A DNA stretch of 64,000 bases from Patescibacteria group bacterium (lineage in GTDB: Bacteria; Patescibacteriota; Microgenomatia; Levybacterales; UBA12049): contig BPJB01000001.1 in assembly GCA_026004395.1 (NCBI GenBank), positions 161,370-225,369 of the forward strand. Reading direction: 5' to 3'. The notes under the pieces are model-generated. The model was not told the DNA's origin. It saw only the letters and a list, made by a program, of their open reading frames with translations, and did no database searches. Of this stretch, positions 10,173 through 50,088 are shown in pieces. Position 1 is the first letter of the stretch. The number at the start of each line of letters is the position of its first letter. Both the position numbers and the translations under genes were made by a program.

Positions 10173-10242
10173 TTCACTGATTTAGATAGAAAATATCATC
10201 TCTCCCAGCATGCATTTTGGAGGGATTTTCTTTTTAGTAGAT

Positions 10243-10710: not shown

Positions 10711-10748
10711 GGTGTTGGATTGTAGAATCGGTTGGCAATAACTACTCC

Positions 10749-11729: not shown

Positions 11730-11792
11730 TCCCTACATCATAATTATTGATGTCTATATGATTTGCCAAACAACATCTACCAACACAAAGAA

Positions 11793-11860
11793 GGACCCCC
11801 ACTAAGAGGGGTTCTATTGCGTTGTTTTTTTTTAGGACCCCTCAGCGAAGGGGTTTTTTA
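11793..11860 (+). terminator. Two tandem Rho-independent terminators after murB
   Basis: Hairpin 1: GGACCCCC-actaaga-GGGGTTC (11793-11815), with a T-run at 11824-11833. Hairpin 2: GGACCCCT-cagcga-AGGGGTTTTTT (11835-11860). Each has a GC stem followed by a U-tract. Confidence 0.6.
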
Positions 11861-11881
11861 GTGGTAAAAATATGAGCAATC

Positions 11882-12694: not shown

Positions 12695-12695
12695 T

Positions 12696-25070: not shown

Positions 25071-25090
25071 TCCTGTTATTATAGTGCTAA
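25054..25090 (+). promoter_or_regulatory. hrcA-grpE-dnaK promoter (TTGACA, 17 nt, TATTAT) overlapped by a CIRCE operator
   Basis: TTGACA at 25054-25059, TATTAT at 25077-25082. CIRCE: TAGCACTC-ctgttatta-TAGTGCTAA at 25065-25090 (consensus TTAGCACTC-N9-GAGTGCTAA), sitting directly upstream of hrcA. Confidence 0.8.
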
Positions 25091-25840: not shown

Positions 25841-26352
25841 TTATGAGTGATATAAAAAATAAACAAGATGAATCACAGCAACAAACATCTAATAATCAGC
25901 AACTTGCATCTTTTGATGAACTAAAAAAACAGATTGAGGAAATCGAAGGCAAGTATAAAAGGGCGTTGGCTGATTATCAAAATCTTGAAAAAAGGGTTAA
26001 AGAGGAACGTGGTGATCTCATCAAAGCAGCCAATCGAGATCTACTCTTGCGTTTTCTGCCAGTTTTAGATACATTACTTATGGCTCAGAAGCATGCAAGT
26101 AGTGAGACGATAGATGTTTGTACACGTCTTTTTCTTGATATTCTAAAACAAGAAGGCGTAACACAAATTAAGACAGTAGGTGAGAAATTTGATCCACATT
26201 TAATGGAAGTTGTAACAACTACTGATGGAAAGGAAGGAATTGTTGTCGAGGAAGCACGCGCAGGTTTTTTATTACATGATAAACTGCTACGTCCTGCGCA
26301 GGTTGTAGTAGGAAGTGGCGATAAAACTCAAAAGAAAGGAGAAGAAAAATAA
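25834..26352 (+). CDS. grpE: Nucleotide exchange factor GrpE
   Basis: …YKRALADYQNLEKRVKEERGD…LLPVLDTL… are GrpE coiled-coil and beta-domain signatures. Position between hrcA and dnaK fits. Confidence 0.85.
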   Translation: MVIMSDIKNKQDESQQQTSNNQQLASFDELKKQIEEIEGKYKRALADYQNLEKRVKEERGDLIKAANRDLLLRFLPVLDTLLMAQKHASSETIDVCTRLFLDILKQEGVTQIKTVGEKFDPHLMEVVTTTDGKEGIVVEEARAGFLLHDKLLRPAQVVVGSGDKTQKKGEEK

Positions 26353-26355
26353 AAA

Positions 26356-28239: not shown

Positions 28240-28534
28240 ATCTCGTATTTAATAGATCAGAAAATTCTTCCCTTTTATTTCTGAAGTAACTGCTAAAAAA
28301 AATAGAAGAGATAATTTTTAGACTCATTAGTTCATCTAAACCTAAAATATAAAAACCTCATGATCTATTTAAATTTTATTCCACTAAATTAATCTCTAAA
28401 TGATGTTTGAAGCTTCTTCGTTACAACGATAGACGTAATTTTCAAATTAAGTTGTGCTCCTAAAAAGTGTAGAATGTATTTAAAGTGTTCGCTACTAGCA
28501 GACTAACTTTTTAATTGCTATAATTACTTTACCT

Positions 28535-29422
28535 ATGGCTAATTTAGATTATTATCAAATTTTAGGTGTTCCAAAAACAGCAACGCAGGATGAAATAAAA
28601 AAGGCTTATAGAAAATTAGCTTTGGAGTATCATCCTGATCGTAACAAAAGTAAAGAAGCAGAAGAAAAATTTAAAGAGATCAACAAAGCATATGAAGTGT
28701 TGTCTGATCCTCAGAAAAGACAAATGTACGATCAATACGGATCAGCTGCCTTTGAGCAGGGTGCAGCAGGTGGACCATTTGGAGGTTTTGGAGGATTTAG
28801 ACAACACACAGGTCGTTACGGACCTTTTACCTATACATACTCAACTAATGGTGCAGATTTTGATTTTGGTGGTTTCTCAGATCCTTTTGAGATTTTTGAA
28901 CAGTTTTTTGGAGGAGCATCGCCATTTGGCAGACGCGAGAGAAGACCAGTCTATTCCTTGACTCTTTCTTTCATGGAGGCTGTGAAAGGAGCTCAAAAGG
29001 AAGTAACTATAAACGGAAAGAGGCAAAAGATTAAGATTCCCCCTGGTGTTGATGATGGTACAAGAATTCGTTTTGGAGATTTTGATATTGTCTTTGATGT
29101 TGTTCCCGATCCTCGATTTGAAAGACAGGGCTCTGATGTGATTTCGGAAAAAGAAATCACGTTTCCTCAAGCAGTTCTTGGAGATCAGGTAGATGTTGAG
29201 ACAGTGGATGGAGTAGTAAAAATTCGTATTCCTCCAGGAACACAACCTAATACTTTGATAAGACTCAGAGGAAAAGGAATACCGCACTTAAGAGGTACGG
29301 GAAAAGGCGATCATTATGTTAGAATCAAAGTGGCTATTCCCAGAACAATAACAAGAAGACAAAAAGAACTTCTAGAAGAATTTCAGAAAGAAAGTTCGGG
29401 TAAAAATACTTCTTGGTTCTAA
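28535..29422 (+). CDS. dnaJ: J-domain co-chaperone (DnaJ/CbpA-like, G/F-rich region, no Cys-rich zinc-finger domain)
   Basis: [34 protein letters not shown] carries the HPD motif, followed by a G/F-rich linker ([10 protein letters not shown]). No CxxCxGxG repeats are present, so it is a type-II-like J protein. Confidence 0.75.
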
Positions 29423-29508: not shown

Positions 29509-29802
29509 ATGTGTCCTCCAAATGAAACACTGACTGAGATTGGGTGCTTGCCAACCGATCCTATCCAATTTATAGGAAGATTTTATGGTATTGGTTTAAG
29601 TCTTATTGGAGGAGTATCTCTCATTTTTATAATCATCGGAGGTTATATTATCCTTACATCGCAAGGTAATCCAGACCAAATTAATGTAGGTAAAAGTTAT
29701 ATATTTTATGCTATCCTAGGGCTACTTCTTGCTATTTTTGGTTTTGTCTTTATTGAGGTGGTTATGGTTGATATTTTACAAATTCCAGGATTTAGTACTT
29801 AG
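29509..29802 (+). CDS. Small two-helix membrane protein, TrbC/VirB2-pilin-like topology (tentative)
   Basis: A 97-aa protein with two hydrophobic helices separated by a short polar loop (…LTSQGNPDQ…). Its stop lies 7 nt upstream of the giant polytopic membrane protein gene. Confidence 0.45.
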   Translation: MCPPNETLTEIGCLPTDPIQFIGRFYGIGLSLIGGVSLIFIIIGGYIILTSQGNPDQINVGKSYIFYAILGLLLAIFGFVFIEVVMVDILQIPGFST

Positions 29803-29809: not shown

Positions 29810-32800
29810 ATGAAAAAGCTTCTGCCCAGTGTATTGATAATTGGTCTTCTGTATCTATTCTTCTTTTTTCCTTTTCATGTGTTTGCTCAGGACGCAGGAT
29901 TACAATCTCCTATGACTATTACTACTACGACAGATCTGCCGCAAGAGGGAGCATGGATTAAAGATCCTGAGGTTACAAAGGTAGGGAAAAATGCTGCAAG
30001 ATCGGGAATGCTTCTTGATTGGACTCTTCAGGAATATCATTGGGCATCAACGAGCGCTGAGTCAGTGAGACCGCTGGCTGAATTCTGGACTGTTATTCAA
30101 AGAATAGTTTATTCACTCTTTCTTTTTGTGATTATTGTAACGGCTTTAATATTAATTATTACACGAGGCAAAAGCATTTCCGCTCGTCGTTTTTTGCCTA
30201 GATTCTTTTTCGTAATTTTATTGGTTACTTTCTCGTTTTCATTGGTTAAATTTGTCTACCAAATTACAGATATTTTTCAAGGTTTTTTTCTTAAAAATCC
30301 ACAAGGTCAGATTATTTCCTCAAGAGATCTTCTTTATGTTGGTTTTGATTATAAAGACTTCGTAGGATTGAGAGTTTTTGGTCAACAATATGATGAGTCA
30401 GCGATGATAGCGCTTCTTTTAGTTAAACTTACAGCTTTTACTTATTATGTAATGTCTATATTGCTTATTGTACGCAAAATTATATTATGGTTTTTTATTG
30501 TTGTATCTCCAATTTTTCCTCTCCTTCTTCTTTTCTATCCATTGCGTAATACTGCCAAAATCTGGTTAGGAGAATTTTTTCGTTGGGTATTATATGCTCC
30601 TTTATTTGCTATTTTCCTTTCAGGTCTTGTTAAGATGTGGCAAAGTTCTCTGCCTCTACCTTTTAATTTTATAGGGGAGAATGTCCGTGATAATGTAATC
30701 TATCCAACTGCAATCAATATTCTTCTTGGAGGTCCTCAACGATTGGTTACTATTGATAATAGTGTTAATCTGCCTAACACTTTTGCACTCTATTTGGTTG
30801 CTCTTTTAATGTTGTGGGTGGTTATTATTCTACCTTTTATCTTGCTTCAGATATTTCTTGATTATATGTACACATTCACTTTTAAGGATTCACCAATTTT
30901 CAAACAAATGATGGGTTTTATTAATAATCGTTTTATTCCTCCATCACCTCCGCCTTTGTCTCCTACTGCTCCTGGACAGCCTTCGGGTCTTGCTCGCAAT
31001 CTCCCATTTGGAAAGCGTATCTCTCTACCTCAAGGAGCTGGTATTGCACGTTCAATTCCTACTGATGTAGCTACTTCACAAAAAGCAAATATTGCTAGAC
31101 CATTTGTTGCATCAAAAGTGGATCAGTCTAAAGTTCTGCGTATGGTCAATCTTTCAATCCCAACAATGCAAGATATCGCACGTTTTGAACGAGCTAGATT
31201 AGAGAAGGATACACTCCAGAAAAAAGAAATTGAAAGAACGCGACAGATTCTTAGAAATATTGCAAACCCAATGAGTATCACAACTGCGTCTGAGAGAGAA
31301 CGCTTCATGCATATCCGTGAGATGCTGCTTAAAGAAAGTCAAAGTGGAAATCCTGTTGCGCTAACAGTTCTTCAAGCAGCCACAAACTATTATATGTCAA
31401 ATGTCTCACAACAATTTTTATCTCAATCACAGGCAACAGAAGAGATTATTCAAAATATTGCGCATCCTGAGAAGATCACCAATACTCTGGAGAGAGAAAG
31501 AATTCTTCAGCTTAAAGAGCAGATTATCAAATCAAGTAAAGAAAATAATCCTCTAGCAACTACTCTTTTAAAAGTTATTTCCCAAATTGAAAATTCTACC
31601 AAACAGCAACTGCAGAAAACATTAGAGAAAATTTCGCAACCTCAATTGATACAATCAACAGATGAAAAAGAAAAATATCAAGAACTTCGTGAGCGTATTG
31701 TTGCAGCCAGTAGATCAGGAAATCAACTGGCAGTACTTCTTCTTAAGTCATTGGAGTCTAAGACTTCTCTTGATCAAGTACAAGCTCTGAAGGAACAGCT
31801 TATTAAAGCTCGCGATGCAGGTAATCCTTTAGCTTCAGAAATACTGAATATTGCATCATCCACAACAAAAGAGTTGTCCAATGAACAGATCACAACGATT
31901 GAATCTGAAATTAGAGAAGCACAAAAAAGAGGAGATCCACTTGCATATCTACTGATGATGATGCTCTCTCAAAAAACAAAGTCGAAGACCGAGTCTCCAA
32001 CCCCGGCTACTTTGAAACTTAAAAAAGGCACATTCCCGGTTGTCAATAGAATTCAACAAGTTAGTCTTGATGATTATGAAGCAGTAAAGAAACTCTGGAA
32101 AGACAATTATCAAAATCTGGATATTCCTCAAGAAGTTGAAGGATTCAGATCACGAAGAGAATGGATCTTAAATGATATTGATTCAATACAAAAAACAATC
32201 AATTTGCTTACTTCACAAAATCCTCAAGATATAGAAGAGGGAATGAAGAATGTTTCCGATATTTTACCATTCCTTCTAATAGGAGGATTTTCACAGACTG
32301 AAATCATAGCTTATCTTAAAGCAAAAATGGAGGCTGCAAAATCTGTACTTGAAGAGTTGGATAAAGAGACAACAGAAGATCTTGTTGAGTCCAGACCTTC
32401 TAAAACTTCTTCTCAACATCAACTGCATATGAGTGTTCAGGAGAGTATAGATAATACGTCTAATCAATATGAAAATGAGATTAACAATTCTATTACAAAT
32501 TTTTACAGTATCAATGCTTCGATTGCACAACAGAGCGATCTGTCAACAAAATCAGTTAATTTTCAATCTGCACAAAATGCAAATTCCTTATTAACGTTAG
32601 TCAATCTTCCTCTGCCTACCATGCAAGATATTGTTAAGTATGAGAAGGCACTTTCTTCTAAGGATACAACTTCTAAAAAAGAGGTAGAAAAGTTTCTTCA
32701 GACGTTAAAGAAACTTGCAGATCCAGAACATCTTACACAAGAAGAAAAAGAAAAGATACAAGCAGTAAAAGATACTCTAGAGAAGGAGAGTAAACAAGGC

Positions 32801-35236
32801 AATATACTTGCAGAGTCTATTCTTACGGCTACAAAACTGAGCCAAGAGCAATTTACAGAAAAAGATATTCCAATTCTTTTACAGCTGTTGCGAACGATCA
32901 CCGATCCATCAATGGCAGAAGATCCTTCAGAACAAGAAACCTACAGAAGGTTATATTCTCAGCTAAGTAATGCCAAACAACAGGCACAGCCTCTAGCTTT
33001 GGAAATCTTTCGTCTAATTGATACATTAGCTCAAAAAGAGTCAGAGTTGACAGCCGTGTTTCTCCAAAAACTCAGCGACCCTGATTCTCTAACAGATGCT
33101 AACGGAAGATTGACATTTCTCAAACTGAAGGAAAGATTACAAGAAGAAAGCAGTAAAGGTAATCAACTCGCATCATTTATCCTTCAGGAAGCTAAAAGAG
33201 ATACTAATCTGATTAACGCTAATAAAGTTAGACTTAAGATTATTGAATCAGCTTTAGATGGTGATCAGTTGGCAAATTTTATTCTCTCAACTCATATACA
33301 GCAGATACCTACTGCTCTTCAAAATCAGGCTCTAACCGTATATAAAATCCTTAGAGATGAAAAACAAAAAGGAAATACTCTAGCACAATCACTATTGAGA
33401 TTATTAGAGTCGAAAAAGCAAACCACCTCAACTAAGATTCATCCTTTATTACCTAAACAGAATCGTATTCAACAAGTAAGCCTTGAAGATTATGAAGCTG
33501 TGAAGAAACTCTGGAAAGAAAATTTCCTTTCAGATGAGATAACAGGTTATTCGGATAAAGAAAGAGCAGAATGGATAAAAAAAGAGATTGCCAATGTTTC
33601 AGAGACAATTAACCTTCTTTCATCTTCAAATCCAGAAGATATTGAGCAGGGAATGAGTCGAGTTGGAGAAATTCTTCCCTTCCTTCTTATTGGAGGATTT
33701 TCACAAGGTGAGATATTAGGATATTTGAAAGCAAAATTGGAAGCTGGTAAATCAGCACTGGAAGAAATTGAAAATAATCAAGATGAGGTAGTTAGAGTAG
33801 AGAGTAATCTTAAGAGCAAAAAAAACGAAAAGACGTTATCTTTTAGTAAAGACTTTGTCGGAGAAATGCAGCAGACTGCTGCTAAAAAAACTGATGACAA
33901 AAAATATAGAGATAAAGAGGAACTAGTTTCATCTCTAAATCTACAAGCTAATCTTCCTCAAACTGAGACTCTTCTTAAGACGCTCTCTCTTCCTTTTTAT
34001 AATCTGAAGGACATTCCCTCTCTTGATATACAGCAGAAAATCACTCCTTCAGCAGCATTTTTAGAACTTGGTGCTCTTTTAAAACTTGCTCATCCGGATA
34101 AGATTAAAGATGCAAAAGAGAAAGAAAAGTTTGCACAAATACGTTCTGCTTTGGTTTCGCAAGCTCGTGATGGAGATGAGTATGCATCATCTATTCTTGC
34201 TGTAGCAGATATCATTTCAGAAAAGGCAGATTCTGAAGATATAGCTCTTCTTACACTTAAAACATTGCAAAAAATTGTATTTCCCGATCTTTGTAAGATA
34301 GATGAACAACAAGAGATGCATTCTCTTAATCAGCAATTACAACAGGAGATACAAAAAGGAAATCTTCTTGCGAGTGAAGGAGAGAAGCTAGCAATAGCAT
34401 ATAAACAAGCACAGCTAGATCAACTTGCTAACTTGATAAGTGAGCTTTATAGTGCGCAAGCAGGATCAGAAGATTCCGAAGAAACACTTCGCGTGTTGAG
34501 AAAACAATTAGAGAATGCTCGTGCAATTGGAAATAACATTGCAGAAAAAATTATTGCATTTGGCGAGAAACAACCCAGTAAATATGAAATTGAAAAACTT
34601 CTAATTTCTTTGTATGAAATCAAAGAAACAGATCGTCTTATATCAACTCTATTCACTTCCTATCTTGCACCTTCGTCTGAATTGTTGTCGCTTGCTAGAG
34701 CTTACTATGAAAAACTGCAAAAACAGAAAAATAATCCATTTGCAGCTTTGTTGATTAGACTAATCAGAAAACAATTACAACAAAGAAAAAGAACGGTCGC
34801 TTCTCTTAGTTTGCCACAACAAAATAGATTGCAACAAGTAAGTCTTGAAGATTATGAGGCAGTAAAGAGGCTCTGGTATGAAATTTATCTTCGTGGAGAT
34901 ATTCCGCTTGATGATGAGGGAGAAACACAATCTCGCGAACAATGGATTGCATCGGATAAAGAAAAACTAATTAACACAGTAAATCTTCTCACATCTGATG
35001 ATCCAGTGAATAATAGAAGAGCTATGGAACAGATTATAGATATTTTGCCATTCCTTCTTATTGGGGGATTCTCCAAAGATGAAATGGTGGGTTATTTAAA
35101 AGCAAAGAGAGAAGCAGCTGAGATGGCTTTGTCGGTACTTAGTGATCAAAAAGAATCTATTTTTTTAAATTCACAAAAAGAAGCTAATTCTCAATCAATA
35201 GCAAAAAACCAAAACTTAAAGAAAGATACTTTCTGA
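29810..35236 (+). CDS. Giant (1808 aa) polytopic membrane protein: signal peptide, a 5-6 TM N-terminal domain (VirB6/TrbL-like topology, tentative), a P-rich linker, and about 1400 aa of alpha-helical repeats in three super-modules
   Basis: One uninterrupted 5.4 kb frame. N-terminal cleavable-type signal (MKKLLPSVLIIGLLYLFFFFPFHVFAQDAG), TM helices between aa 95-370, then a PPSPPPLSPTAPGQPSG linker. After that come repeated ~40-aa units (…ERERF.xIRExLLKESQSGNPVALTVL…) and three copies of a ~115-aa module (…QQVSLEDYEAVKKLWKEN……ILPFLLIGGFSQ.EI.GYLKAK.EA…). Confidence 0.7.
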   Translation: MKKLLPSVLIIGLLYLFFFFPFHVFAQDAGLQSPMTITTTTDLPQEGAWIKDPEVTKVGKNAARSGMLLDWTLQEYHWASTSAESVRPLAEFWTVIQRIVYSLFLFVIIVTALILIITRGKSISARRFLPRFFFVILLVTFSFSLVKFVYQITDIFQGFFLKNPQGQIISSRDLLYVGFDYKDFVGLRVFGQQYDESAMIALLLVKLTAFTYYVMSILLIVRKIILWFFIVVSPIFPLLLLFYPLRNTAKIWLGEFFRWVLYAPLFAIFLSGLVKMWQSSLPLPFNFIGENVRDNVIYPTAINILLGGPQRLVTIDNSVNLPNTFALYLVALLMLWVVIILPFILLQIFLDYMYTFTFKDSPIFKQMMGFINNRFIPPSPPPLSPTAPGQPSGLARNLPFGKRISLPQGAGIARSIPTDVATSQKANIARPFVASKVDQSKVLRMVNLSIPTMQDIARFERARLEKDTLQKKEIERTRQILRNIANPMSITTASERERFMHIREMLLKESQSGNPVALTVLQAATNYYMSNVSQQFLSQSQATEEIIQNIAHPEKITNTLERERILQLKEQIIKSSKENNPLATTLLKVISQIENSTKQQLQKTLEKISQPQLIQSTDEKEKYQELRERIVAASRSGNQLAVLLLKSLESKTSLDQVQALKEQLIKARDAGNPLASEILNIASSTTKELSNEQITTIESEIREAQKRGDPLAYLLMMMLSQKTKSKTESPTPATLKLKKGTFPVVNRIQQVSLDDYEAVKKLWKDNYQNLDIPQEVEGFRSRREWILNDIDSIQKTINLLTSQNPQDIEEGMKNVSDILPFLLIGGFSQTEIIAYLKAKMEAAKSVLEELDKETTEDLVESRPSKTSSQHQLHMSVQESIDNTSNQYENEINNSITNFYSINASIAQQSDLSTKSVNFQSAQNANSLLTLVNLPLPTMQDIVKYEKALSSKDTTSKKEVEKFLQTLKKLADPEHLTQEEKEKIQAVKDTLEKESKQGNILAESILTATKLSQEQFTEKDIPILLQLLRTITDPSMAEDPSEQETYRRLYSQLSNAKQQAQPLALEIFRLIDTLAQKESELTAVFLQKLSDPDSLTDANGRLTFLKLKERLQEESSKGNQLASFILQEAKRDTNLINANKVRLKIIESALDGDQLANFILSTHIQQIPTALQNQALTVYKILRDEKQKGNTLAQSLLRLLESKKQTTSTKIHPLLPKQNRIQQVSLEDYEAVKKLWKENFLSDEITGYSDKERAEWIKKEIANVSETINLLSSSNPEDIEQGMSRVGEILPFLLIGGFSQGEILGYLKAKLEAGKSALEEIENNQDEVVRVESNLKSKKNEKTLSFSKDFVGEMQQTAAKKTDDKKYRDKEELVSSLNLQANLPQTETLLKTLSLPFYNLKDIPSLDIQQKITPSAAFLELGALLKLAHPDKIKDAKEKEKFAQIRSALVSQARDGDEYASSILAVADIISEKADSEDIALLTLKTLQKIVFPDLCKIDEQQEMHSLNQQLQQEIQKGNLLASEGEKLAIAYKQAQLDQLANLISELYSAQAGSEDSEETLRVLRKQLENARAIGNNIAEKIIAFGEKQPSKYEIEKLLISLYEIKETDRLISTLFTSYLAPSSELLSLARAYYEKLQKQKNNPFAALLIRLIRKQLQQRKRTVASLSLPQQNRLQQVSLEDYEAVKRLWYEIYLRGDIPLDDEGETQSREQWIASDKEKLINTVNLLTSDDPVNNRRAMEQIIDILPFLLIGGFSKDEMVGYLKAKREAAEMALSVLSDQKESIFLNSQKEANSQSIAKNQNLKKDTF
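32054..32360 (+). repeat. Intragenic repeat copy 1 (conserved ~300 bp core of a ~1.4 kb super-repeat)
   Basis: caacaagttagtcttgatgattatgaagcagtaaagaaactctggaaagac… through …attttaccattccttctaataggaggattttcacag… This recurs at 33470 and 34832 with about 80% identity. Confidence 0.7.
33470..33770 (+). repeat. Intragenic repeat copy 2
   Basis: caacaagtaagccttgaagattatgaagctgtgaagaaactctggaaagaaaat… through …attcttcccttccttcttattggaggattttcacaagg…. Confidence 0.7.
34832..35140 (+). repeat. Intragenic repeat copy 3
   Basis: caacaagtaagtcttgaagattatgaggcagtaaagaggctctggtatgaaatt… through …attttgccattccttcttattgggggattctccaaag…. Confidence 0.7.
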
Positions 35237-35290: not shown

Positions 35291-37966
35291 ATGCTAGGTA
35301 ATTTATTCACCCAACGAAAACCAGTGAAACCTTCCATCGCAAGTGATGAGCAAGCAGGAATTGCTCAGTCAAGCGTCTCCGAACAGCAAATATCTTCTTC
35401 AGGCACTACAGCTGCAGTTGGTTCGCGTATGGATCCTCTCATGCGCCAAAATCTTTCTGCTTTATCTCATCTTGATGCTCGAACAACACAGGTGCTTCAT
35501 CATGCACAGGATGAAACCAAACGAATTCGTCAGGCACAAATACGACCGGAACAACTTCTTCTTGGACTCCTCTATGATGAAGAAATATTTAAACTTCTTG
35601 AACAGTTTGAAGTGGATGTTGCCAAGCTTTCGCAAGAAATTCAATCAAAAGAACAGATTGGTACTTATCTAGGTCAACCCACACTCAGTAATGAGAGTAT
35701 TCAAATTTTTGAGCAAGCGTATCGTGAAACAAAGAAAAGAGGAGAAAGTTTCGTTTCTCCTGAGGATCTACTTATGGTTATCTGCGATAGTAACTATGAG
35801 GCTAGCCTTGTTCTTAAAGAAAAAGGTATCAAAAGAGAACAGATAGAAGAAAGGGTGGCAAAATCTTCAATATTTATTAAAGGCAGGAAATCGATTCTGC
35901 AGCAGTACGGAATTGATCTAACAGAGGAAGCACGGGAAGGGAAATTGGATCCTATTGCAGGCAGAGATAAAGAAATAGATAGACTTATACATATTTTACT
36001 TAGACGAACGAAAAATAATCCCATTATTATTGGCGAAGCAGGCGTGGGTAAGACAGCTTTGGTTGAAGGATTGGCTCAGAAGATAGTCTCTGGAAACGCT
36101 CCGAAAGAACTTCAAAATAAACGTATATTTCAGTTAGATCTTGCATCGCTTATTGCGGGAGCAAGTCATCGGGGAGAGTTTGAAGAGAGATTGAAGGGAG
36201 TTATTAATGAGACAATTGCTGCAGAAGGACAGATAATTCTTTTTATTGATGAAATTCATACCCTCATTGGTACTGGAGATACTGAAGGTGCACTTGATGC
36301 ATCCAATATAATTAAGCCACATTTGGCTAGAGGTCACATACAAGTTATTGGTACTACTACTACCTCTGAATACCGTAAACACTTTGAGAAGGATAAAGCA
36401 TTTGAAAGAAGATTCCAACCTGTTCTTTGCGAGGAACCAGATGAGTCTACAGCAGTTCAGATGTTGAAAGTGCTGCAACCAAAATATGAGAAATTTCACA
36501 CAGTTGTCTTCCCAGAAGATACACTCATTGCAGCAGTTAAGCTTTCTAAAAAATATATAGGTGATCGCTACTTGCCGGACAAAGCAGTTGATCTTCTTGA
36601 TGAAGCAGCAGCTCATGTCAAGCTTGAAATTGAGGGTGGCAAAAGATCAGGAAATACAGTTGAGAAAAAAGATATAGAACAAGTTGTGAGTAACTGGACA
36701 GGGATTCCTGTTACTCGATTGACTGAAGATGAAAGTCAAAAACTTCTCAATCTTGAGAAAAAGATTCATGAGCGACTTATAGATCAAGAAGAAGCAGTAA
36801 TTGCTGTGGCTGAGGCTGTTCGTCGAGGGAGGATAGGTCTTTCTGCGGCAAATCGTCCTATTGCTTCATTTATTTTTCTTGGTCCAACAGGAGTTGGCAA
36901 GACGGAATTGGCAAAGACATTAGCTGAGATTCTTTTTGGTCGAGACGATGCAATGGTCAGGCTAGACATGAGTGAATATATGGAAAAACATGAGGTAGCA
37001 AAACTTATCGGTGCTCCGCCTGGTTATGTGGGTTATGAAGAAGGAGGGCAGCTCACAGAGGCTGTACGGCAAAAGCCTTACTCAATTGTTCTCTTAGATG
37101 AGGTAGAGAAAGCCCATCCAGATGTTTTTAATATTCTTCTTCAGCTTTTGGAAGATGGAAGACTTACAGATAATAAAGGCAATACAATTTCATTTAAAAA
37201 TACTATTGTCATTTGCACTTCCAATATTGGCAGTAGTCTCATTCAACAGCAACTAAGTGAGAAAGAAGATTCAATGCAACAATCTCAAGAGGAGTTTAAT
37301 AAACAGTTTGAAGAATTAGCAAGTATGGTAAGTAATGAACTTCATAAATTCTTCCGTCCTGAACTTTTGAATAGATTTGATGATATCGTTATATTTAAAC
37401 CATTGCGTAAATCAGATATGAACGCAATTGCCAAGCTTGGAATAGCAAAAACAGCTAAGCTCCTTGAAGATCAAGGATATCACTTACAAACCACAGAGAA
37501 AGCTATTGCCGAGCTTGCTAAGGAAGGTTATGACCCAGTTTATGGGGCTCGTCCATTGAGACGTCTAATCCAAACAGCCATAGAGAACCAAATAGCACTT
37601 CTTATCATTGGCAGAACGTTTGTCCCAGGCGATACGATCATTGTTGATTTTGATGAGACACAGGGAGTATTTAGATTTAGTAAAGGGAGCGGTGAGAGAT
37701 TAGAGAACAGAGATAATCTGTCAGAGTCTTCTGAAAGTCTAAAGGAAAATGCTCAAGTTGAAGATACTTTTTCTGCCGAAACTTCAATCAATCAACCGGA
37801 TGCAGTGAGTCTTAATAATCAATCGGAAGACTCATCATCATCAATCTTAGCACACGATCCCCTCTCTGATATTAATGGATCATTATTAAGAAATAATCAG
37901 ACAGATATTCAGGGGCAGCCTCCATTATCTCAAGGAAGTGGAGATAATCTTACCACTACAAATTAG
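35291..37966 (+). CDS. Hsp100/Clp-family AAA+ ATPase with two intact nucleotide-binding domains and two Clp_N repeats, ClpA/ClpC-like, no long M-domain, no recognisable ClpP-binding (I/L)G(F/L) loop, S/Q-rich N- and C-terminal tails
   Basis: D1 has …IIIGEAGVGKTALVEGLA… (Walker A) and …ILFIDEIHTL… (Walker B). D2 has …FIFLGPTGVGKTELAK… and …SIVLLDEVEKAH…. Only about 35 aa lie between D1 and D2. The IG[FL]-loop position reads …NIGSSLIQQQ…. The C-terminal 120 aa are low complexity. Confidence 0.8.
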   Translation: MLGNLFTQRKPVKPSIASDEQAGIAQSSVSEQQISSSGTTAAVGSRMDPLMRQNLSALSHLDARTTQVLHHAQDETKRIRQAQIRPEQLLLGLLYDEEIFKLLEQFEVDVAKLSQEIQSKEQIGTYLGQPTLSNESIQIFEQAYRETKKRGESFVSPEDLLMVICDSNYEASLVLKEKGIKREQIEERVAKSSIFIKGRKSILQQYGIDLTEEAREGKLDPIAGRDKEIDRLIHILLRRTKNNPIIIGEAGVGKTALVEGLAQKIVSGNAPKELQNKRIFQLDLASLIAGASHRGEFEERLKGVINETIAAEGQIILFIDEIHTLIGTGDTEGALDASNIIKPHLARGHIQVIGTTTTSEYRKHFEKDKAFERRFQPVLCEEPDESTAVQMLKVLQPKYEKFHTVVFPEDTLIAAVKLSKKYIGDRYLPDKAVDLLDEAAAHVKLEIEGGKRSGNTVEKKDIEQVVSNWTGIPVTRLTEDESQKLLNLEKKIHERLIDQEEAVIAVAEAVRRGRIGLSAANRPIASFIFLGPTGVGKTELAKTLAEILFGRDDAMVRLDMSEYMEKHEVAKLIGAPPGYVGYEEGGQLTEAVRQKPYSIVLLDEVEKAHPDVFNILLQLLEDGRLTDNKGNTISFKNTIVICTSNIGSSLIQQQLSEKEDSMQQSQEEFNKQFEELASMVSNELHKFFRPELLNRFDDIVIFKPLRKSDMNAIAKLGIAKTAKLLEDQGYHLQTTEKAIAELAKEGYDPVYGARPLRRLIQTAIENQIALLIIGRTFVPGDTIIVDFDETQGVFRFSKGSGERLENRDNLSESSESLKENAQVEDTFSAETSINQPDAVSLNNQSEDSSSSILAHDPLSDINGSLLRNNQTDIQGQPPLSQGSGDNLTTTN

Positions 37967-38137
37967 CTTCAAAAAATTTAGACTGAGATTATTTGAGTTT
38001 TCTATTTAGAGTTTCTATACTTAAGATAGGTAATAAATGACAAAAATCTATAGTTTTCAATTTCGTTTTCAATTTTTACCAATGAAGTAAAAATTGTAAC
38101 GACAGAATAATATATAAGTTTATTTTTAATTTTTACT

Positions 38138-38467
38138 ATGTTTTCGTACCTCAGATTTCCATATTATTTTGTTCGATTTTGGTTCATTGAAGCTCCATCC
38201 GGTATTTTGGATTTTTTTCTTTCTCTCAATCATGCATTTTTTCATTTTTTCTCTCTTCCATTATTTTTGCGTACATTTTTTCAACCTTTGAAAAATGAAT
38301 ACCGCACGGGTTTAGTAGGATTTTCTATAGGAATGGGTATTGCGGTTAAAACGGTGTTAATTTTGGTTGATATTTTACTTTTTATTATTCTTCTTGTTTT
38401 TGAAGCCGCAGTTTTAGTTGCATTTGTTATATTTCCTTTTTTAACAATAGCATTACTTTTATGGTAG
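38138..38467 (+). CDS. Small multi-pass membrane protein (3-4 TM)
   Basis: A strongly hydrophobic 109-aa ORF whose stop overlaps the start of the downstream Hsp100 paralog by 7 nt (ATGGTAG). Confidence 0.4.
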   Translation: MFSYLRFPYYFVRFWFIEAPSGILDFFLSLNHAFFHFFSLPLFLRTFFQPLKNEYRTGLVGFSIGMGIAVKTVLILVDILLFIILLVFEAAVLVAFVIFPFLTIALLLW

Positions 38468-40878
38468 CAGCGCAGGACGATTTTATAAAACTCTATGCAT
38501 TTTATAGATCTGCATTTATGCGTGCAGTTCGTCTCTTGATTTTTTTCATTCTTGGCACATATATTCTTTCTGCTTTTTCTACTAATACTTCTCCCAAATT
38601 TGCACTCTTTTTAATGAACATTTTTATCATGTTAGAGGTTTTTTATCATTTTAAGATATCCCGTTTACGACCATCTATGACAGTTCAACAAGCGGATGAT
38701 GATCATGCTCTTAAGGCATGTACTCTTGCTGTTCTCTATGCACTTTATACTGCACAATCTGCGGAGGAGTTAATCAGGCGACTTTTACGCTCAAAACAAG
38801 CAATCTTTTTACTAGAACGTATTCCTGTTAGTCCTGAAGAACTTCCTCATACTACAATTGAAGCTATTACACTCCTTAGATCTACTTTAAAGATTGCCAA
38901 GCTAGCAGGAGGAATCTATATTACTCCTGCTGATGTGATAGCAACATATCTTTTGTTGACTGAGGATCAATCAAAACTGCTCTTTTCCAAAAAAATCAAA
39001 CAAACTGAGCTGATAGAAATTTTGAGATGGGCAAGGTGGAGCTACCCCGAGGAGGAAAAGCACCATCCGCTGGAAATTCAAATTAGTGGTTCAGGAATTG
39101 GTGAAGGGCTTGTAGCAGGATGGACAATCGAGACAAAGAAGTACACTCGTGATTTTGGTATGAACGCAGTTAATGAAAATAACTCCATTATTGGAAGAGA
39201 GGAAGAGTTTCGTGCATTACAGGAAGCTCTCGTAAAAAATCAAAATAACAATGTTCTTCTTATAGGCGAGCAAGGTGCTGGAAAAGAAGGATTGGTACAG
39301 AAACTAGCTATTGATAGTTTTAATGGAAGAACAATTGCAGGTTTGAGGAATAAACGTATTCTTGAACTTCTTATTGGTCCATTAATTGCTGGTGTCTCAT
39401 CTTTAGGAGATCTAGAAGCGCGTCTTCAGGCAATTATTGAAGAAGTATCTCATGCTGGGAATATCATTCTTTATATACCTGAAGTGCAGGATATTCTCGG
39501 ATCGACATCTTTCTCTATGGATCTTTCTGGAGCTCTTTATCCTTATCTTAAAACTGGCAAACTTCCTGTCATTGCGTCTATCACTCCAGGTAATTTTAAG
39601 ACCTATCTTGAGGAAAAACCTCTTGCACGGCTTTTTACACCTATTTATCTTAATGAACCAAAAGAGGAACAAGCAAAACGTATATTGATGGAAAGATCAT
39701 TAGCAATTGAGCGAAAAACCAAAGTCATCATTACTTATTCAGCAATTATTGCTGCTGTAAAATTTGGTGATCGTTATGTACAGGAGATTAGACTGCCGGG
39801 TAGCGCAATTCGACTTCTTGAAGATGTTGTGCAAAGTGCAATGCAGCAGACAATGCCTGTATATTCTCTTACGCACCAAAAAATTCTTACAGAAGATTTC
39901 ATTGTTCAGAAGATTGAAGAGAGGATTGGTGTGTCTCTTTCTGAACCCACATCAGATGAAAGAAATCTTTTATTAAACTTAGAGAATAAACTTCATGAGC
40001 GGGTCATAGGTCAAGACGAGGCAATAAGAGTCATTGCGCAAGCTATTCGTAGACTTCGTTCTGGGATGATATCACGACCAAGACCCATATCATTTCTTTT
40101 CTTAGGACCAACTGGAGTGGGAAAAACAGAGACAGCAAAAGCGCTTGCCAGTATTTATTTTGGTGGTGAAAATTCTATGATTAGACTGGATATGAGTGAG
40201 TATTCCGATGAGATAGGAGAACGCAGGCTGCTTGGAGCTCCTCCAGGACAAGGAACAGAGCGTGGTGAGTTAACAGAACAAGTTCGAGATCATCCTTATT
40301 CTTTGATATTGTTGGATGAGTTTGAAAAAGCTCATCCTCGAATTTTGGATCTTTTTCTTCAAGTTTTGGATGATGGTCGTCTCACAGATAACAAAGGTAG
40401 AACAGTATCTTTTATAAATTCGCTGATTATTGCAACATCTAACGCAGGTTCTGAGTTTATTCGCGAAGAGGTCTTGAAAGGAACTCCATTAGATCAACAG
40501 TTTGAAGCAAAGCTTATTGAGTATTTACAAAATCATCATATTTTCAAACCTGAACTTCTCAATAGATTTGACGATATCATCACTTTTAGACCGCTTACCA
40601 AAGAGCAGATCAAAAAAATTTGTGCACTTATGCTTCAGCAGGTAGTGTCTGATTTGTTAGAAAAAGATATAGCTATAGTATGGGAAGATAAAGTTTTAGA
40701 TAAAATATCTTCAGAAGCATTTGATCCTCAGTTTGGAGCTCGTCCTATAAGAAGATATATTCAAAACAATATAGAAGATCTTCTTGCTCAAAAAATACTT
40801 GCAGGAGATGTGCAACGAGGGAATACTGTGCATATCACACTCAGAGACGATGATTCATTTGCAGTAACTGTTACCTAG
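38461..40878 (+). CDS. Membrane-anchored Hsp100/Clp-like AAA+ protein with degenerate D1 (pseudo-ATPase) and intact D2
   Basis: Two N-terminal TM helices (…LLIFFILGTYILSAF…, …FALFLMNIFIMLEVFY…). The D1 Walker A reads GEQGAGKEG (GKE instead of GKT/S) and the D1 Walker B reads ILYIPE (Pro in place of Asp). D2 is canonical: …LFLGPTGVGKTETAK…, …SLILLDEFEKAH…, a sensor-2 GAR in …GARPIRR…. No IGF loop. Confidence 0.65.
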   Translation: MVAAQDDFIKLYAFYRSAFMRAVRLLIFFILGTYILSAFSTNTSPKFALFLMNIFIMLEVFYHFKISRLRPSMTVQQADDDHALKACTLAVLYALYTAQSAEELIRRLLRSKQAIFLLERIPVSPEELPHTTIEAITLLRSTLKIAKLAGGIYITPADVIATYLLLTEDQSKLLFSKKIKQTELIEILRWARWSYPEEEKHHPLEIQISGSGIGEGLVAGWTIETKKYTRDFGMNAVNENNSIIGREEEFRALQEALVKNQNNNVLLIGEQGAGKEGLVQKLAIDSFNGRTIAGLRNKRILELLIGPLIAGVSSLGDLEARLQAIIEEVSHAGNIILYIPEVQDILGSTSFSMDLSGALYPYLKTGKLPVIASITPGNFKTYLEEKPLARLFTPIYLNEPKEEQAKRILMERSLAIERKTKVIITYSAIIAAVKFGDRYVQEIRLPGSAIRLLEDVVQSAMQQTMPVYSLTHQKILTEDFIVQKIEERIGVSLSEPTSDERNLLLNLENKLHERVIGQDEAIRVIAQAIRRLRSGMISRPRPISFLFLGPTGVGKTETAKALASIYFGGENSMIRLDMSEYSDEIGERRLLGAPPGQGTERGELTEQVRDHPYSLILLDEFEKAHPRILDLFLQVLDDGRLTDNKGRTVSFINSLIIATSNAGSEFIREEVLKGTPLDQQFEAKLIEYLQNHHIFKPELLNRFDDIITFRPLTKEQIKKICALMLQQVVSDLLEKDIAIVWEDKVLDKISSEAFDPQFGARPIRRYIQNNIEDLLAQKILAGDVQRGNTVHITLRDDDSFAVTVT

Positions 40879-40926
40879 TACCCATTTTTTAAAAAAAGAT
40901 TTAGAATGTAGTAAAGATACAATAAG

Positions 40927-41949
40927 ATGACTCAAAGACGCACGATCACAAAAAGGAAAAAATTAATAAGAAGGAGGAAACATCCATGGATGAAAATCCT
41001 ATCCTTTTTTCAAGGAGAGGGAGGAATCTTTGTCATTTTCATATTAGCATCTATAATGGCCGGAGCATTTGCGCTCACAGGTGGACTTACTCCAGTGCTT
41101 AATCCAGCTCCATCGTCTCAGGATCAAGTTATTATTGATGAGGACTCAGCAAAACGCAGTAATGAGAAATCTCTTCAACTAGTTGATATTAAGATTAAAC
41201 CAACAGATACTCCAACACCAACACCCTCGAGTACACCGACCCTAACACCCACACCGCAACAAGCGTGTTTGAATAAGACAGTTTTGACACTCATACTTGA
41301 TGTATCTACTTCAATGAATGCGAATAACAAGATGGGGCAGCTTAATGATGCCTTAAAAAATCTTATAAGTCAGTTAAACGATGAGACGGTGATAGGTGCT
41401 ATAGAATTTGCAGGCCTTGCTTCTTTTCCTAATACTAATGGTGCAAATACACTTCTTCCCTATACTCGGTATAAAGATAATAAATCTCTTATTCAGTCTC
41501 GATTAAGTAACTTACAAGTACATACAACTTCGCTCAACGATGGAACTTATTTTCGATCTGCCTTTACTAGAGCTATTAATAACATCAATGCTGTCAAGGG
41601 TATGTATGCAAGTCAAGGATATAATTTTGTAACAATTGTTTTTACTGATGGAGTACCAGAGACACAGTACACAGATCATGATTGTTTAGTTGAGATTAAC
41701 AATCCCTATATTTGTTTTTCCAATAAGCAAGATCCGCGTTATGATTTAACAGATAGACTCAAAAGTATATCTAATCGAGTGTATTCAATAGGTATTTATT
41801 CAGGACAAAGAGAAAGAGCTGTTTTAACACAAGCCAAACAATTACTTGCAGATATTGCATCAAAACCTTCGTACACAAAAAGTAGCGATAACCCTGCTGC
41901 AATAACTTCTCTTTTCCAAGATACTCTTTCTACTGTTTGTAATCAATAG
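40927..41949 (+). CDS. TM-anchored von Willebrand factor type A (vWA) domain protein with a T/P-rich linker
   Basis: N-terminal TM (…IFVIFILASIMAGAFALTGGL…), a linker TDTPTPTPSSTPTLTPTP, and a vWA core with the MIDAS motif …LILDVSTSMNAN… (DxSxS) plus …VTIVFTDGVPE… (the T…DG metal-site residues). Confidence 0.7.
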   Translation: MTQRRTITKRKKLIRRRKHPWMKILSFFQGEGGIFVIFILASIMAGAFALTGGLTPVLNPAPSSQDQVIIDEDSAKRSNEKSLQLVDIKIKPTDTPTPTPSSTPTLTPTPQQACLNKTVLTLILDVSTSMNANNKMGQLNDALKNLISQLNDETVIGAIEFAGLASFPNTNGANTLLPYTRYKDNKSLIQSRLSNLQVHTTSLNDGTYFRSAFTRAINNINAVKGMYASQGYNFVTIVFTDGVPETQYTDHDCLVEINNPYICFSNKQDPRYDLTDRLKSISNRVYSIGIYSGQRERAVLTQAKQLLADIASKPSYTKSSDNPAAITSLFQDTLSTVCNQ

Positions 41950-42154: not shown

Positions 42155-42475
42155 TTGCCAAATAGGAAGATGAAAGATTTTCTTCTCTCTTTACTGACCC
42201 CAATCGAAAGGATTATGCTAGCCAAAAGACTCGCAATTATTATTCTTTTAAAAGAAGGGCTTCCAGAGTGGCGTATTGCTGATGCTTTACACATGACGCG
42301 AATCACAGTATCCAGGATGCAACTTTTCCTGGAAGCAAGAGGCAAGGGTTATGAAATTGCTTTGCAAGTCCTGCAAAACGAAAAAGTTATGCAAGATATA
42401 AAAAATTTACTTCTGAAACTCGCAGGTTACGCTGTAAGAGCAGCTGGCGGACGAGTTAAGCCCTCTATTATCTGA
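42155..42475 (+). CDS. TrpR/YerC-YecD-like helix-turn-helix DNA-binding protein
   Basis: …LTPIERIMLAKRLAIIILLKEGLPEWRIADALHMTRITVSR… resembles the TrpR-family HTH. Length is 106 aa. Confidence 0.5.
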   Translation: MPNRKMKDFLLSLLTPIERIMLAKRLAIIILLKEGLPEWRIADALHMTRITVSRMQLFLEARGKGYEIALQVLQNEKVMQDIKNLLLKLAGYAVRAAGGRVKPSII

Positions 42476-48923: not shown

Positions 48924-48975
48924 CATACGATCTCTTTTGCTTTTGTGATATTTTTAGTATTATAAAGATCGTATG
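48924..48975 (+). promoter_or_regulatory. 10-bp perfect inverted repeat (CATACGATCT … AGATCGTATG, 32-nt loop) whose 3' arm contains the start codon of the Lon-like gene
   Basis: Left arm 48924-48933, right arm 48966-48975. The ATG of the downstream ORF is at 48973-48975, and the repeat sits in the pnp to Lon-like intergenic region. Confidence 0.4.
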
Positions 48976-50088
48976 GATCCTGCCTCTTTATCAACAGCAT
49001 CTTCACAGAAACCTATTCAAGAAAAAGCAGAGTCAATGGATCAGATTCGCAGATTAGGTGAGCGTGTTGAAAAGGCTAATCTCCCTGCTTTACTTAAAGA
49101 AAATCTTCTAGAACGTGTCTCACGTTTGGCTCTGATACGAGCAAGTTCGGGATTTATGAGTGCAAATTATATTCTCGAATATGAAAATACAGCTAACTAC
49201 ATTAATTGGGTGGTTGGATTGCCGTGGAATAATCAAAGTGAAGATATCCTAGATATGATAAAAGCAAAGCAGATTATGGATAAACATCATTATGGACTTG
49301 AAGAAATAAAAAATAGAATTTTGGATTATCTTGCTACTATAATTCTTAACTTAAAGCAAGGAAGAAAAGATATTATCCAGCGTGCGCCTATTCTTTGTCT
49401 CGTAGGCTTAGCAGGCACCGGTAAGACGACTCTCGCAGCATCAATAGCAGAGGCATTAAATAAAAAATTTGAACGTATTCCTTTTGGGGGGATGGCAGAC
49501 GCACGAGCTCTTCGTGGTCAATCCAAAGCTTTTCCAGATGCAGAGCCGGGGTATATTATCAAAAAACTTTTTCATGCACAAACAAAGAATCCAGTAATAC
49601 TTCTTGATGAGCTTGATAGAGTTACAGAATCGGCTCGAGCAGATATTATGGGAGTACTTGTAGAACTTCTTGATCCTGAGCAAAATTTCTCTTTTGTTGA
49701 TCACTATATTGACTATCCTTTTGATCTCTCGAATGTTTTTTTTATTGCAACCGCAAACAATACCAGTACTATTTCTACTGCTGTTCTTGATCGTTTGGAG
49801 ATTATTCAAATGCCTTCATATACAGATGAGGAAAAATTAATCATTGCTAAAAATTACCTTTTTGACAAAATAAGAACAACAGCAGGATTAACAGATCAAC
49901 AACTCAGCATTGATGAATCTGTTTGGCCTCAGGTGATAAGACCTTTGGGATTTGATTCTGGGATTCGTTCTCTTGAGAGAACAATTGAAAGTATATGCAG
50001 AAAAGTAGCGCGTCAAATTGTTGAAGGTAGAGTACAGAATGTTCGAATTACACAAGATAATCTCAAAGAGTATCTTGTTACGTGGTAG
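48973..50088 (+). CDS. Lon-derived AAA+ ATPase module without the N-terminal (LAN) domain and without the S16 protease domain
   Basis: …YINWVVGLPWNNQSED…KQIMDKHHYGLEEIKNRILDYLAT…ILCLVGLAGTGKTTLAASIAEALNKKFERIPFGGMADARALRGQSKAFPDAEPGYIIKKL…NPVILLDELDRV… is collinear with Lon residues about 300-580 (Walker A, Walker B, sensor/arginine finger). The ORF ends at …LKEYLVTW*, right where the Lon protease domain would begin, and the next gene (rnj) starts 86 nt later. Confidence 0.7.
   Translation: MDPASLSTASSQKPIQEKAESMDQIRRLGERVEKANLPALLKENLLERVSRLALIRASSGFMSANYILEYENTANYINWVVGLPWNNQSEDILDMIKAKQIMDKHHYGLEEIKNRILDYLATIILNLKQGRKDIIQRAPILCLVGLAGTGKTTLAASIAEALNKKFERIPFGGMADARALRGQSKAFPDAEPGYIIKKLFHAQTKNPVILLDELDRVTESARADIMGVLVELLDPEQNFSFVDHYIDYPFDLSNVFFIATANNTSTISTAVLDRLEIIQMPSYTDEEKLIIAKNYLFDKIRTTAGLTDQQLSIDESVWPQVIRPLGFDSGIRSLERTIESICRKVARQIVEGRVQNVRITQDNLKEYLVTW

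Follow-up and report, generated by a model that had tools for sequence, protein, structure and literature searches.

The textbook hallmarks of Hsp100 proteins are pore-loop tyrosines and a coupling device, i.e., either an M-domain that couples the protein to Hsp70 or a loop that couples it to ClpP. In ClpB/Hsp104, the M-domain is required for Hsp70-coupled disaggregation. Elsewhere among AAA+ proteins, Torsins are cofactor-dependent and poor in pore loops. At least one Hsp100 serves a secretion machine: Francisella ClpB is reported to serve the type VI secretion system (T6SS) (PMC7182274). Within the Candidate Phyla Radiation (CPR), the annotation of TM7x includes both clpB and clpP (bioRxiv 10.1101/2022.03.25.485537), so ClpP is not generally absent from the CPR. 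According to a survey of type IV secretion system (T4SS) genes in Patescibacteria, CPR homologs of VirB6 and VirB2 are often encoded away from virB4, and VirB6 is poorly detected in Microgenomatia; Clp, DnaK, and AAA+ proteins are unmentioned in that survey (PMC12102498). Here, we describe a locus with two Hsp100 genes in a 64,000-nt stretch of DNA from an ultra-small bacterium of the Patescibacteria group, order Levybacterales (contig BPJB01000001.1, positions 161,370 to 225,369), which we refer to as "the window". Neither of the two Hsp100 families is described in the literature that we searched on CPR Hsp100/Clp proteins, membrane-anchored Hsp100s, and the CPR heat-shock response.

The locus comprises four open reading frames (ORFs) in tandem on the + strand: Clp1 (35291-37966, 891 aa), a mini-protein that we also call "small" (38138-38467, 109 aa), Clp2 (38461-40878, 805 aa), and a protein with a von Willebrand factor A (vWA) domain (40927-41949, 340 aa). 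A gene for a giant membrane protein ends 54 nt upstream of clp1, and the subsequent intergenic distances are 171 nt (Clp1/small), −7 nt (small/Clp2), and 48 nt (Clp2/vWA); these are exactly the orientation and gaps listed in the original prediction for this locus, as we found on re-reading the sequence. All four ORFs have conserved homologs, so none is a chance ORF. The original prediction had proposed either an apparatus dedicated to the giant protein or a membrane-associated AAA+/vWA system. We conclude instead that the interval consists of three separable evolutionary units, namely Clp1, the mini-protein together with Clp2, and the vWA protein, and not of a single AAA+/vWA system. The overall explanation that we favor, by a judgment slightly better than even and from sequence comparison, is that Clp1 would work on the giant protein, which is VirB6-like, that the mini-protein and Clp2 would form a membrane ATPase, and that the vWA protein would be independent of both.

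We compared the window with eight loci from an exact-protein look-up (L001-L006, L167, L168) and with 80 metagenome loci recovered via a motif in the small protein; loci were mapped by tblastn. Close relatives occur in groundwater samples such as Hainich ERZ1292617. The comparison reveals a CPR gene string: hrcA-grpE-dnaK-dnaJ / pilin-giant-clp1 / small-clp2 / (variable slot) / nusA-infB. Two layouts recur. In the long layout (18 of the 32 classifiable loci), the order is dnaJ-pilin-giant-Clp1-[variable slot]-small-Clp2; in the short layout (12 of 32), small and Clp2 directly follow dnaJ, with no Clp1 within 10 kb. A scan of contigs for the Clp2 alignment with generic Hsp100 peptides (LLDEFEKA, SFLFLGPTG) was uninformative, returning mostly ordinary ClpB/ClpC from unrelated phyla and a few distant CPR loci, none of which has the small gene.

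Clp1 and Clp2 are both members of the broad class I Hsp100 superfamily, which has an N-domain, two AAA+ domains (D1 and D2), and a D2-small domain. For Clp1, Pfam matches are to Clp_N, AAA, AAA_lid_9, AAA_2, and ClpB_D2-small, and both rings retain intact Walker A and B motifs, arginine fingers, and sensors. In D1, Walker A is at aa 248-255, Walker B at 316-323, and the arginine pair (RR) at 373-374; in D2, Walker A is at 531-538, a GYVGY pore loop at 574-586, and Walker B at 600-608. The D1 pore loop (AGASHRGEFEERLK, aa 289-302) has His291 where tyrosine is expected, i.e., AGAS-H-RGEFEER versus (K/R)-Y-RG, a substitution that the original prediction overlooked. Between D1 and D2, the junction is only 45 aa long, compared to 160-165 aa in the ClpB references and 100 aa in the ClpC references of our alignment, meaning that Clp1 lacks an M-domain. 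Nor does an [ILVM]G[FL] loop follow the D2 sensor-1, the region in which the ClpC references show IGF or LGF; in this ClpA/ClpC/ClpB-type alignment, a check proposed with the original prediction, the loop is absent from Clp1 and Clp2 alike. Motif reading and reference alignment thus agree with the earlier description of Clp1 as having two intact ATPase domains and neither an M-domain nor a ClpP loop. From aa ~799, the protein ends in a low-complexity tail of ~90 aa.

These features extend to the Clp1 family, for which we collected 120 homologs, all from the CPR and 62-100% identical. The D1 pore histidine is found in 115 of the 120 and a junction of 45-47 aa in 92, while a ClpP loop is found in none. 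The window protein is 100% identical to an NCBI protein from a metagenome-assembled genome that is named "chaperone protein ClpB [Patescibacteria group bacterium]", its best matches by sequence in the PDB are to ClpB and ClpC (E ~1e-206), and it clusters with canonical ClpB/ClpC in a neighbor-joining tree. Clp1 is a soluble class I Hsp100 that is present across the CPR.

What sets Clp1 apart is its association with the genes upstream. The giant membrane protein (29810-35236, + strand, 1808 aa) begins with a signal or transmembrane (TM) segment, followed by a polytopic TrbL/VirB6-like N-terminal region (aa ~100-345) and then, over ~1460 aa, by helical repeats in which the motif "...GN.LA..L" ("...NP...GN.LA..L") recurs. 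Its match to Pfam TrbL is weak (E 1.2e-4, 22.3 bits, cutoff 25.9), as are similar matches of its orthologs in L004 and L005. The giant gene starts 7 nt after the gene for a VirB2-like (T4SS_pilin-like) small membrane protein (29509-29802, + strand, 97 aa), a previously unlisted ORF that follows dnaJ and whose product matches Pfam PF18895 with E 0.002, under the curated cutoff. An ortholog of the pilin-like gene occupies the same position in L002, L004, L005, L006, L167, and L168; those in L002 and L005 have precomputed PF18895 matches too, flagged as weak. A 273-aa protein in L122 has a pilin-like C-terminus (E 4e-5, 24.0 bits versus the 26.6-bit cutoff). Overall, T4SS_pilin scores range from 18.6 to 24 bits against the cutoff of 26.6, such that all ortholog matches are sub-threshold. 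Separate from its repeats, the giant also carries three copies of a ~150-aa module (QQVSLEDYEAVKKLW...ILPFLLIGGFS). Two loci with the short layout have a pilin-like gene upstream of hrcA in divergent orientation (L090 4921-5193 and L122 4631-5452, both on the − strand); in L122, the pilin-like gene is followed by a UvrD/PD-(D/E)XK helicase gene and not by a giant protein.

The pilin-like gene, the giant gene, and clp1 are contiguous in the window and in L002, L004, L005, L006, L167, and L168, and in L001 the giant gene is directly upstream of clp1. Giant-like matches end within a few hundred nucleotides of clp1 in 13 metagenome loci whose sequence extends upstream (L087, L092, L099, L111, L113, L114, L119, L125, L129, L130, L135, L138, and L166). 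L162 has just a giant-like fragment, 1.4 kb upstream of clp1. The three genes stay together in every locus examined that has upstream sequence, despite insertions on either side: in L168 genes have entered between dnaJ and the pilin-like gene, and elsewhere S8, M4, or M64-like peptidase genes or UvrD separate clp1 from small. A second link is at the level of domains. Many Clp1 homologs are 1000-1500 aa long, and in 36 of 45 such proteins the C-terminal extension consists of giant-type repeats; reversed and shuffled controls each gave 0 of 45. The extensions match aa ~475-716 of the window giant (E down to 4e-17) or orthologous giants in fetched loci, and in two genomes the Clp1 extension matches the neighboring giant itself (L006, E 3.6e-28; L167, E 2.5e-12). 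Repeat-bearing sequences include P0183 and P0218, and L006 at 10001-14137.

Together, contiguity and shared repeats lend real support to the idea of an apparatus for the giant protein, but only as far as Clp1 is concerned; the mini-protein and Clp2 form a separate module. Clp1 would hydrolyze ATP in both rings, and its D2 loop is of the canonical threading type. Because it lacks the docking loop, it cannot dock ClpP, and because it has no M-domain, it cannot be controlled by DnaK through one; it may therefore be a protease-independent unfoldase or remodeler, with the presumably cytoplasmic repeats of the neighboring VirB6-like giant as its docking site or substrate. We infer that Clp1 works on or with this giant protein as a ClpP- and DnaK-independent unfoldase.

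The second unit is the mini-protein with Clp2. The small gene is directly upstream of clp2 in 6 of 6 loci and in all 65 metagenome loci with ≥400 nt of downstream sequence, with an estimated spacing in the latter of mostly −19 to +15 nt. In the window, the 7-nt overlap is ATGGTAG (...TTA TGG TAG over ATG GTA G), which is a typical coupling junction. The pair is maintained without a giant or Clp1 nearby in L003, L090, L102, L107, L144, L146, and L169, and in L169 it has been relocated beside type IV pilus genes. The slot that separates clp1 from small is 0.16 to 4.4 kb long among the metagenome loci, and in L167 and L005 its length is about 5-9 kb. This slot is a hotspot of variable insertions, often of secreted peptidases (S8, M4, or M64-like) and also of a cupredoxin with a UvrD/PD-(D/E)XK helicase; examples are at L001 5411-8530, L168 13118-15199, L005 12810-15518, and L167 13593-17223. 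The mini-protein appears to be an obligate partner of Clp2, and the two genes a translationally coupled pair.

The mini-protein is strongly hydrophobic, with a conserved polar loop, TFFxPxKNEYRxGL, at aa 46-59. The original prediction gave it three or four TM segments, a count that would be plausible; the AlphaFold2 (AF2) model (predicted local distance difference test [pLDDT] 94.4) draws two very long helices, aa 3-37 and 60-108, as a hairpin joined by the polar loop. Foldseek found no structural neighbor for this model at E<4, and searches of Pfam, NCBIfam, and PADLOC found no match. When the mini-protein sequence of the window was compared exhaustively with 1.84 billion representatives by phmmer, only 43 clusters were retrieved, with proteins of 67-152 aa, none of them fused to another protein. 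The possibility that small and clp2 are a single, frameshifted gene was rejected, given that the two ORFs overlap or abut in 65 loci and that no fusion was seen in the 43 clusters.

Clp2 has two hydrophobic helices near its N-terminus (aa 22-40 and 48-66; 18-40 and 46-64 in the AF2 model). Positive charges flank this hairpin on both sides, which predicts an N-in orientation with the remainder of the protein in the cytoplasm. The hairpin is followed by a helical, Clp_N-like N-domain (aa ~80-194, eight helices in the model) and, between the N-domain and D1, by a near-invariant, Clp2-specific, Gly/Trp-rich linker motif, GxGIGExLVxGWTxETKKYTxDF (aa 210-232, nt 39088-39156). This motif lies in a region of low AF2 confidence and is a candidate contact for the conserved loop of the mini-protein or for the membrane. 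In D1, Walker A reads GAGKE (269-276) and Walker B IPEV (339-342), the arginine fingers (RR) are lost, and there is no pore-loop tyrosine. D2 is intact, with Walker A at 549-556, Walker B at 616-624, sensor-1 at N661, R702, and GAR at 759-761. Its pore loop (aa 592-604) has GQGTER in place of GYVGY, a change overlooked by the original prediction. Clp2, like Clp1, has a short D1-D2 junction and no M-domain, and neither the alignment nor the family consensus has a ClpP loop. The AF2 model (pLDDT 84.9) contains the hairpin, N-domain, D1, and D2, and aligns to ClpC from end to end in Foldseek (~800 columns, E 2e-52). The TM hairpin and the losses of D1 motifs agree with what had been predicted, i.e., a membrane-anchored Hsp100 with a degenerate first ATPase domain.

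The same departures from the canonical sequence are seen throughout a set of 90 Clp2 family members. In every tabulated variant of the D1 Walker B motif (covering 66 of the 90), Asp is replaced by Pro (IPxx), and a canonical IDE was not seen; 54 of the 90 have a Walker A with GKE at its end, the arginine fingers are gone, and pore aromatics are found in 0 of 90. All 90 keep both Walker motifs of D2 intact; sensor-1, the arginine of NRFD, and GAR are conserved as well. What is left of the D2 pore loop is a shortened G(E/Q)G-x-ERGE, with an aromatic residue in 3 of 90 and none in 87. We rejected the possibility that Clp2 is a decaying pseudogene, since 90 members keep invariant D2 catalytic motifs and identical D1 substitutions. 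Another long-branch clade (P0093-P0106, P0119) consists of more divergent, TM-anchored Hsp100s without GYVG/KYRG pore motifs; in most of those sampled, the D1 Walker B is also missing and Walker A reads GKE or GRE. In L170 (9546-12472), a member of this distant clade has a remote small homolog directly upstream, in an unrelated context; in that small membrane protein, KYFFQPLYKDF is a distant counterpart of the KNEYR loop.

With no aromatic pore loop in D2 in 87 of the 90 proteins, Clp2 is unlikely to act as a canonical threading unfoldase. Rather, since both rings lack an aromatic pore-loop residue, a remodeling or regulatory role would be more likely than processive threading. A possible mechanism is as follows. 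The mini-protein and Clp2 would be made together by virtue of their overlapping stop and start codons and would assemble into one membrane complex. The N-in, two-helix hairpin would keep the Clp_N-like domain and the entrance of the ring close up to the membrane on its inner side. D1 would be a fixed pseudo-ATPase, probably a structural ring, leaving D2 as the sole motor of what may be a membrane-proximal remodeling or regulatory ATPase. The fact that small-clp2 directly follows dnaJ in many relatives hints that the pair may serve the heat-shock response or membrane proteostasis.

By itself, Clp2 has no threading loops, which raises the possibility of mixed, membrane-tethered Clp1/Clp2 hexamers similar to Pex1/Pex6 or FtsH/FtsHi, with the anchor and a regulatory pseudo-D1 coming from Clp2 and the pore loops from Clp1. 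Both proteins lack an M-domain and a ClpP loop, their genes lie in one co-directional string, and clp1 and clp2 are on the same contig in most long-layout loci. However, small-clp2 occurs without clp1 within 10 kb in L003, L090, L102, L144, L169, and others, the distance from clp1 to small differs greatly among loci, and Clp2 is not a recent duplicate of Clp1: the two are ~38% identical, and Clp2 forms a separate long branch in the neighbor-joining tree. We consider mixed hexamers very unlikely and prefer to treat Clp1 and the small-Clp2 pair as separate units.

The vWA protein matches Pfam VWA_2 (E 5.8e-8) and has a complete metal ion-dependent adhesion site (MIDAS) with D125-x-S-x-S129 (D125, S127, S129), T207, and D241. 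Its first 26 residues include 11 Lys/Arg and are predicted to be cytoplasmic; a single TM segment (aa ~32-53) and a Pro/Thr linker (92-110) follow, and the vWA domain is bracketed by Cys114 and Cys338. The homologs in L002 and L004 have matching MIDAS residues and the Cys pair. A membrane anchor and all of the MIDAS residues are therefore present, as originally described. Hydropathy and positive-inside analysis predict that the vWA domain is extracytoplasmic and that the ATPase rings are cytoplasmic. The protein thus has the signature of what would be an exported, membrane-tethered binding domain.

Conservation of the gene neighborhood bears directly on the proposal of an AAA+/vWA partnership, i.e., a single, membrane-associated system, either MoxR-vWA-like or a defense or secretion module, that would include both Hsp100s, the mini-protein, and the vWA protein. 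The four genes are co-directional with short gaps in the window, and a vWA gene follows clp2 in the nearest relatives (L087, L111, L113/114, L135, L002, L004). Beyond these, the association breaks down: of the 32 informative metagenome loci, only 5 have a vWA homolog after Clp2 and 27 do not, with nusA directly next in 14, and just two of the eight look-up loci (L002 and L004) have a vWA homolog. Conserved co-occurrence was the test put forward with the partnership itself, and it failed; moreover, the vWA domain, with its flanking Cys pair, is predicted to lie across the membrane from the ATPases, and the Hsp100s are not MoxR proteins. PADLOC returned only generic matches to the D2 AAA region (DolB, PDC-M37B) and none for the mini-protein, the vWA protein, or the pilin-like protein, and the idea of an anti-phage defense system was dropped on the basis of these generic matches. 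We regard a single AAA+/vWA system as extremely improbable. The vWA protein appears to be a lineage-specific surface protein that is part of neither Hsp100 module; it may be a surface-exposed, metal-dependent binding protein that occupies a variable slot and functions independently of the ATPases.

The original description of the locus, accurate in its ORFs and motifs, overlooked the heat-shock operon located immediately upstream. The hrcA-grpE-dnaK-dnaJ genes (25100-29422, + strand; Pfam matches to HrcA, GrpE, HSP70, and DnaJ) are preceded by an HrcA operator similar to CIRCE (controlling inverted repeat of chaperone expression) at 25064-25090 (+ strand; TTAGCACTC-N9-GAGTGCTAA, 2 mismatches). 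This is the sole match in the 64-kb window, with 0.02 expected by chance, and it lies just upstream of hrcA. The best σ70-like promoter (25054-25082, + strand; 11/12, with a TG extension, i.e., a near-consensus extended −10) overlaps it. Neither clp1 nor small-clp2 is directly preceded by a CIRCE, and from hrcA to nusA the + strand shows no convincing terminator. Read-through from the CIRCE promoter across the whole string would be plausible. Downstream of the vWA gene are a TrpR-like gene, nusA, infB, and pnp (Pfam matches in the window); nusA-infB-rpsO-pnp is a universally conserved string. GC content in the region is ~35-39%, and the gene content is that of an ordinary chromosomal region of a small-genome bacterium.

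This setting speaks for a housekeeping explanation in which Clp1 is a ClpB-equivalent general disaggregase and Clp2 its membrane quality-control paralog, both belonging to the HrcA regulon, with the adjacency to the giant gene being no more than inherited CPR gene order. The block is directly 3′ of the CIRCE-controlled operon, co-directional with it and separated by short gaps; Clp1 is conserved across its CPR homologs in the manner of a core gene and carries the NCBI name ClpB; and small-clp2 directly follows dnaJ in at least 12 loci (in the order dnaJ-small-clp2-nusA), next to the universal nusA-infB-rpsO-pnp flank. Several features do not fit. Clp1 lacks the M-domain expected of a disaggregase, and Clp2 lacks pore-loop aromatics in both rings. 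The pilin-like and VirB6-like genes are always between dnaJ and clp1, while other inserts vary on either side. In addition, the sharing of a domain between the Clp1 extensions and the giants is statistically robust. We consider the housekeeping explanation doubtful, albeit with a real claim to attention, and continue to favor three separable units with Clp1 tied to the giant.

There are also observations that weigh against the explanation we favor. The VirB2 and VirB6 labels rest on Pfam matches under curated thresholds, there is no VirB4-like protein among the window ORFs scanned, and the C-terminal topology of the giant is ambiguous, with 5 or 6 TM segments. The window's own Clp1 tail has no similarity to the giant-type repeats. 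For Clp2, missing pore-loop aromatics are no proof that the protein cannot translocate. Co-transcription with the dnaK operon is deduced from orientation and short gaps alone. Lastly, the loci compared are from related CPR lineages, with DnaK 66-84% identical over matched segments, so synteny may be partly inherited and not selected.

Other genes of the window drew our attention in passing. A small TrpR-like helix-turn-helix protein is encoded between the vWA gene and nusA (42155-42475, + strand) and was not seen at the corresponding position among the called genes of the look-up loci. An orphan, Lon-like AAA+ protein of 371 aa (48973-50088, + strand) has AAA and Lon_lid domains and no protease domain; it is syntenic in L002 (20176-21303) and L003 (20504-21568), after pnp and before RNase J. 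A 773-aa protein (58037-61070, − strand) has a weak Baseplate_J-like match (E 6.6e-7), and its gene adjoins a sortase gene.

As described, a whole radiation of bacteria keeps one Hsp100 that lacks both coupling devices and is tied, genetically and by a shared domain, to a giant VirB6-like protein, and a second that is membrane-anchored, whose first ring is dead, whose rings have no gripping loops, and whose 109-aa partner is obligate. An ambitious extension, which we consider unlikely, is that these are two new machines side by side. Clp1 would operate on an orphan VirB2/VirB6-like channel via the shared repeats, unfolding proteins or pulling them through in place of the VirB4/VirD4-type motors in these episymbiotic bacteria, and Clp2 with the mini-protein would be a membrane-embedded, non-threading Hsp100 that remodels or gates a membrane complex by ATP hydrolysis in D2 only. 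If the roles proposed for Clp1 and Clp2 in the explanation that we favor are correct, the range of the Hsp100 scaffold would widen to include a secretion-linked motor and a non-threading membrane remodeler, and the two proteins would be testable candidates for envelope-protein handling and proteostasis in genome-reduced episymbionts. A false lead has also been removed, since the AAA+/vWA "system" does not exist here.

Of the described Hsp100s, ClpB/Hsp104 shares several features with both proteins: Clp_N and two AAA+ rings, no ClpP loop, and genes near dnaK-dnaJ-grpE. ClpB is the best NCBIfam match and the best PDB sequence match for both proteins. However, both lack the ~120-aa coiled-coil M-domain, and both fall far under the equivalog cutoff for ClpB (TIGR03346), Clp1 with 916.7 of 1232 bits in two stretches and Clp2 with 495.7. 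Whereas ClpB has aromatic pore residues in both rings (KYRG in D1, GYVG in D2), Clp1 has them only in D2, with SHRG in D1; Clp2 differs further by its dead D1, its lack of any pore-loop aromatics, and its TM anchor. ClpA shares the D1-D2 junction without an M-domain, and the ClpA model (TIGR02639) aligns as a single stretch; ClpC is the top PDB structure match for the Clp2 model. Scores against ClpA are nevertheless under the cutoff (722.5 of 993 bits for Clp1, 426 for Clp2), and both proteins lack the IG(F/L)-type ClpP loop of ClpA/ClpC and the UVR or short M-domain of the ClpC type. With scores under each curated cutoff and the defining features missing, Clp2 is no standard ClpB, ClpC, or ClpA type, as had been surmised, and neither is Clp1.

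MoxR-vWA systems resemble the window in that an AAA+ gene adjoins a vWA gene with a complete MIDAS. They differ in the ATPase family, which is single-ring MoxR and not double-ring Hsp100, and the adjacency here holds in only 5 of 32 loci, with opposite predicted compartments. For Clp2 with the mini-protein, FtsH, Msp1/ATAD1, Bcs1, and Torsins provide what we take to be a useful analogy, presumably sharing an N-terminal TM anchor, a ring entrance that faces the membrane, and a small membrane partner. Clp2 is a double-ring Hsp100 and not a single-ring classical AAA protein, and, in contrast to FtsH and Msp1, it has neither a protease domain nor an aromatic pore loop; no homology to any of these families was found beyond the AAA+ core. 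For Clp1, our working analogy is with ClpV/TssH and Francisella ClpB. Clp1 is under the TssH cutoff (TIGR03345; 696 of 885 bits, with 387 for Clp2), the window ORFs that were scanned include no T6SS genes, and what ties Clp1 to its partner, here a VirB2-/VirB6-like pair, is a shared repeat domain in place of an N-domain-sheath contact. What the two have in common is the arrangement itself: a ClpP-independent Hsp100 that is genetically tied to an envelope machine.

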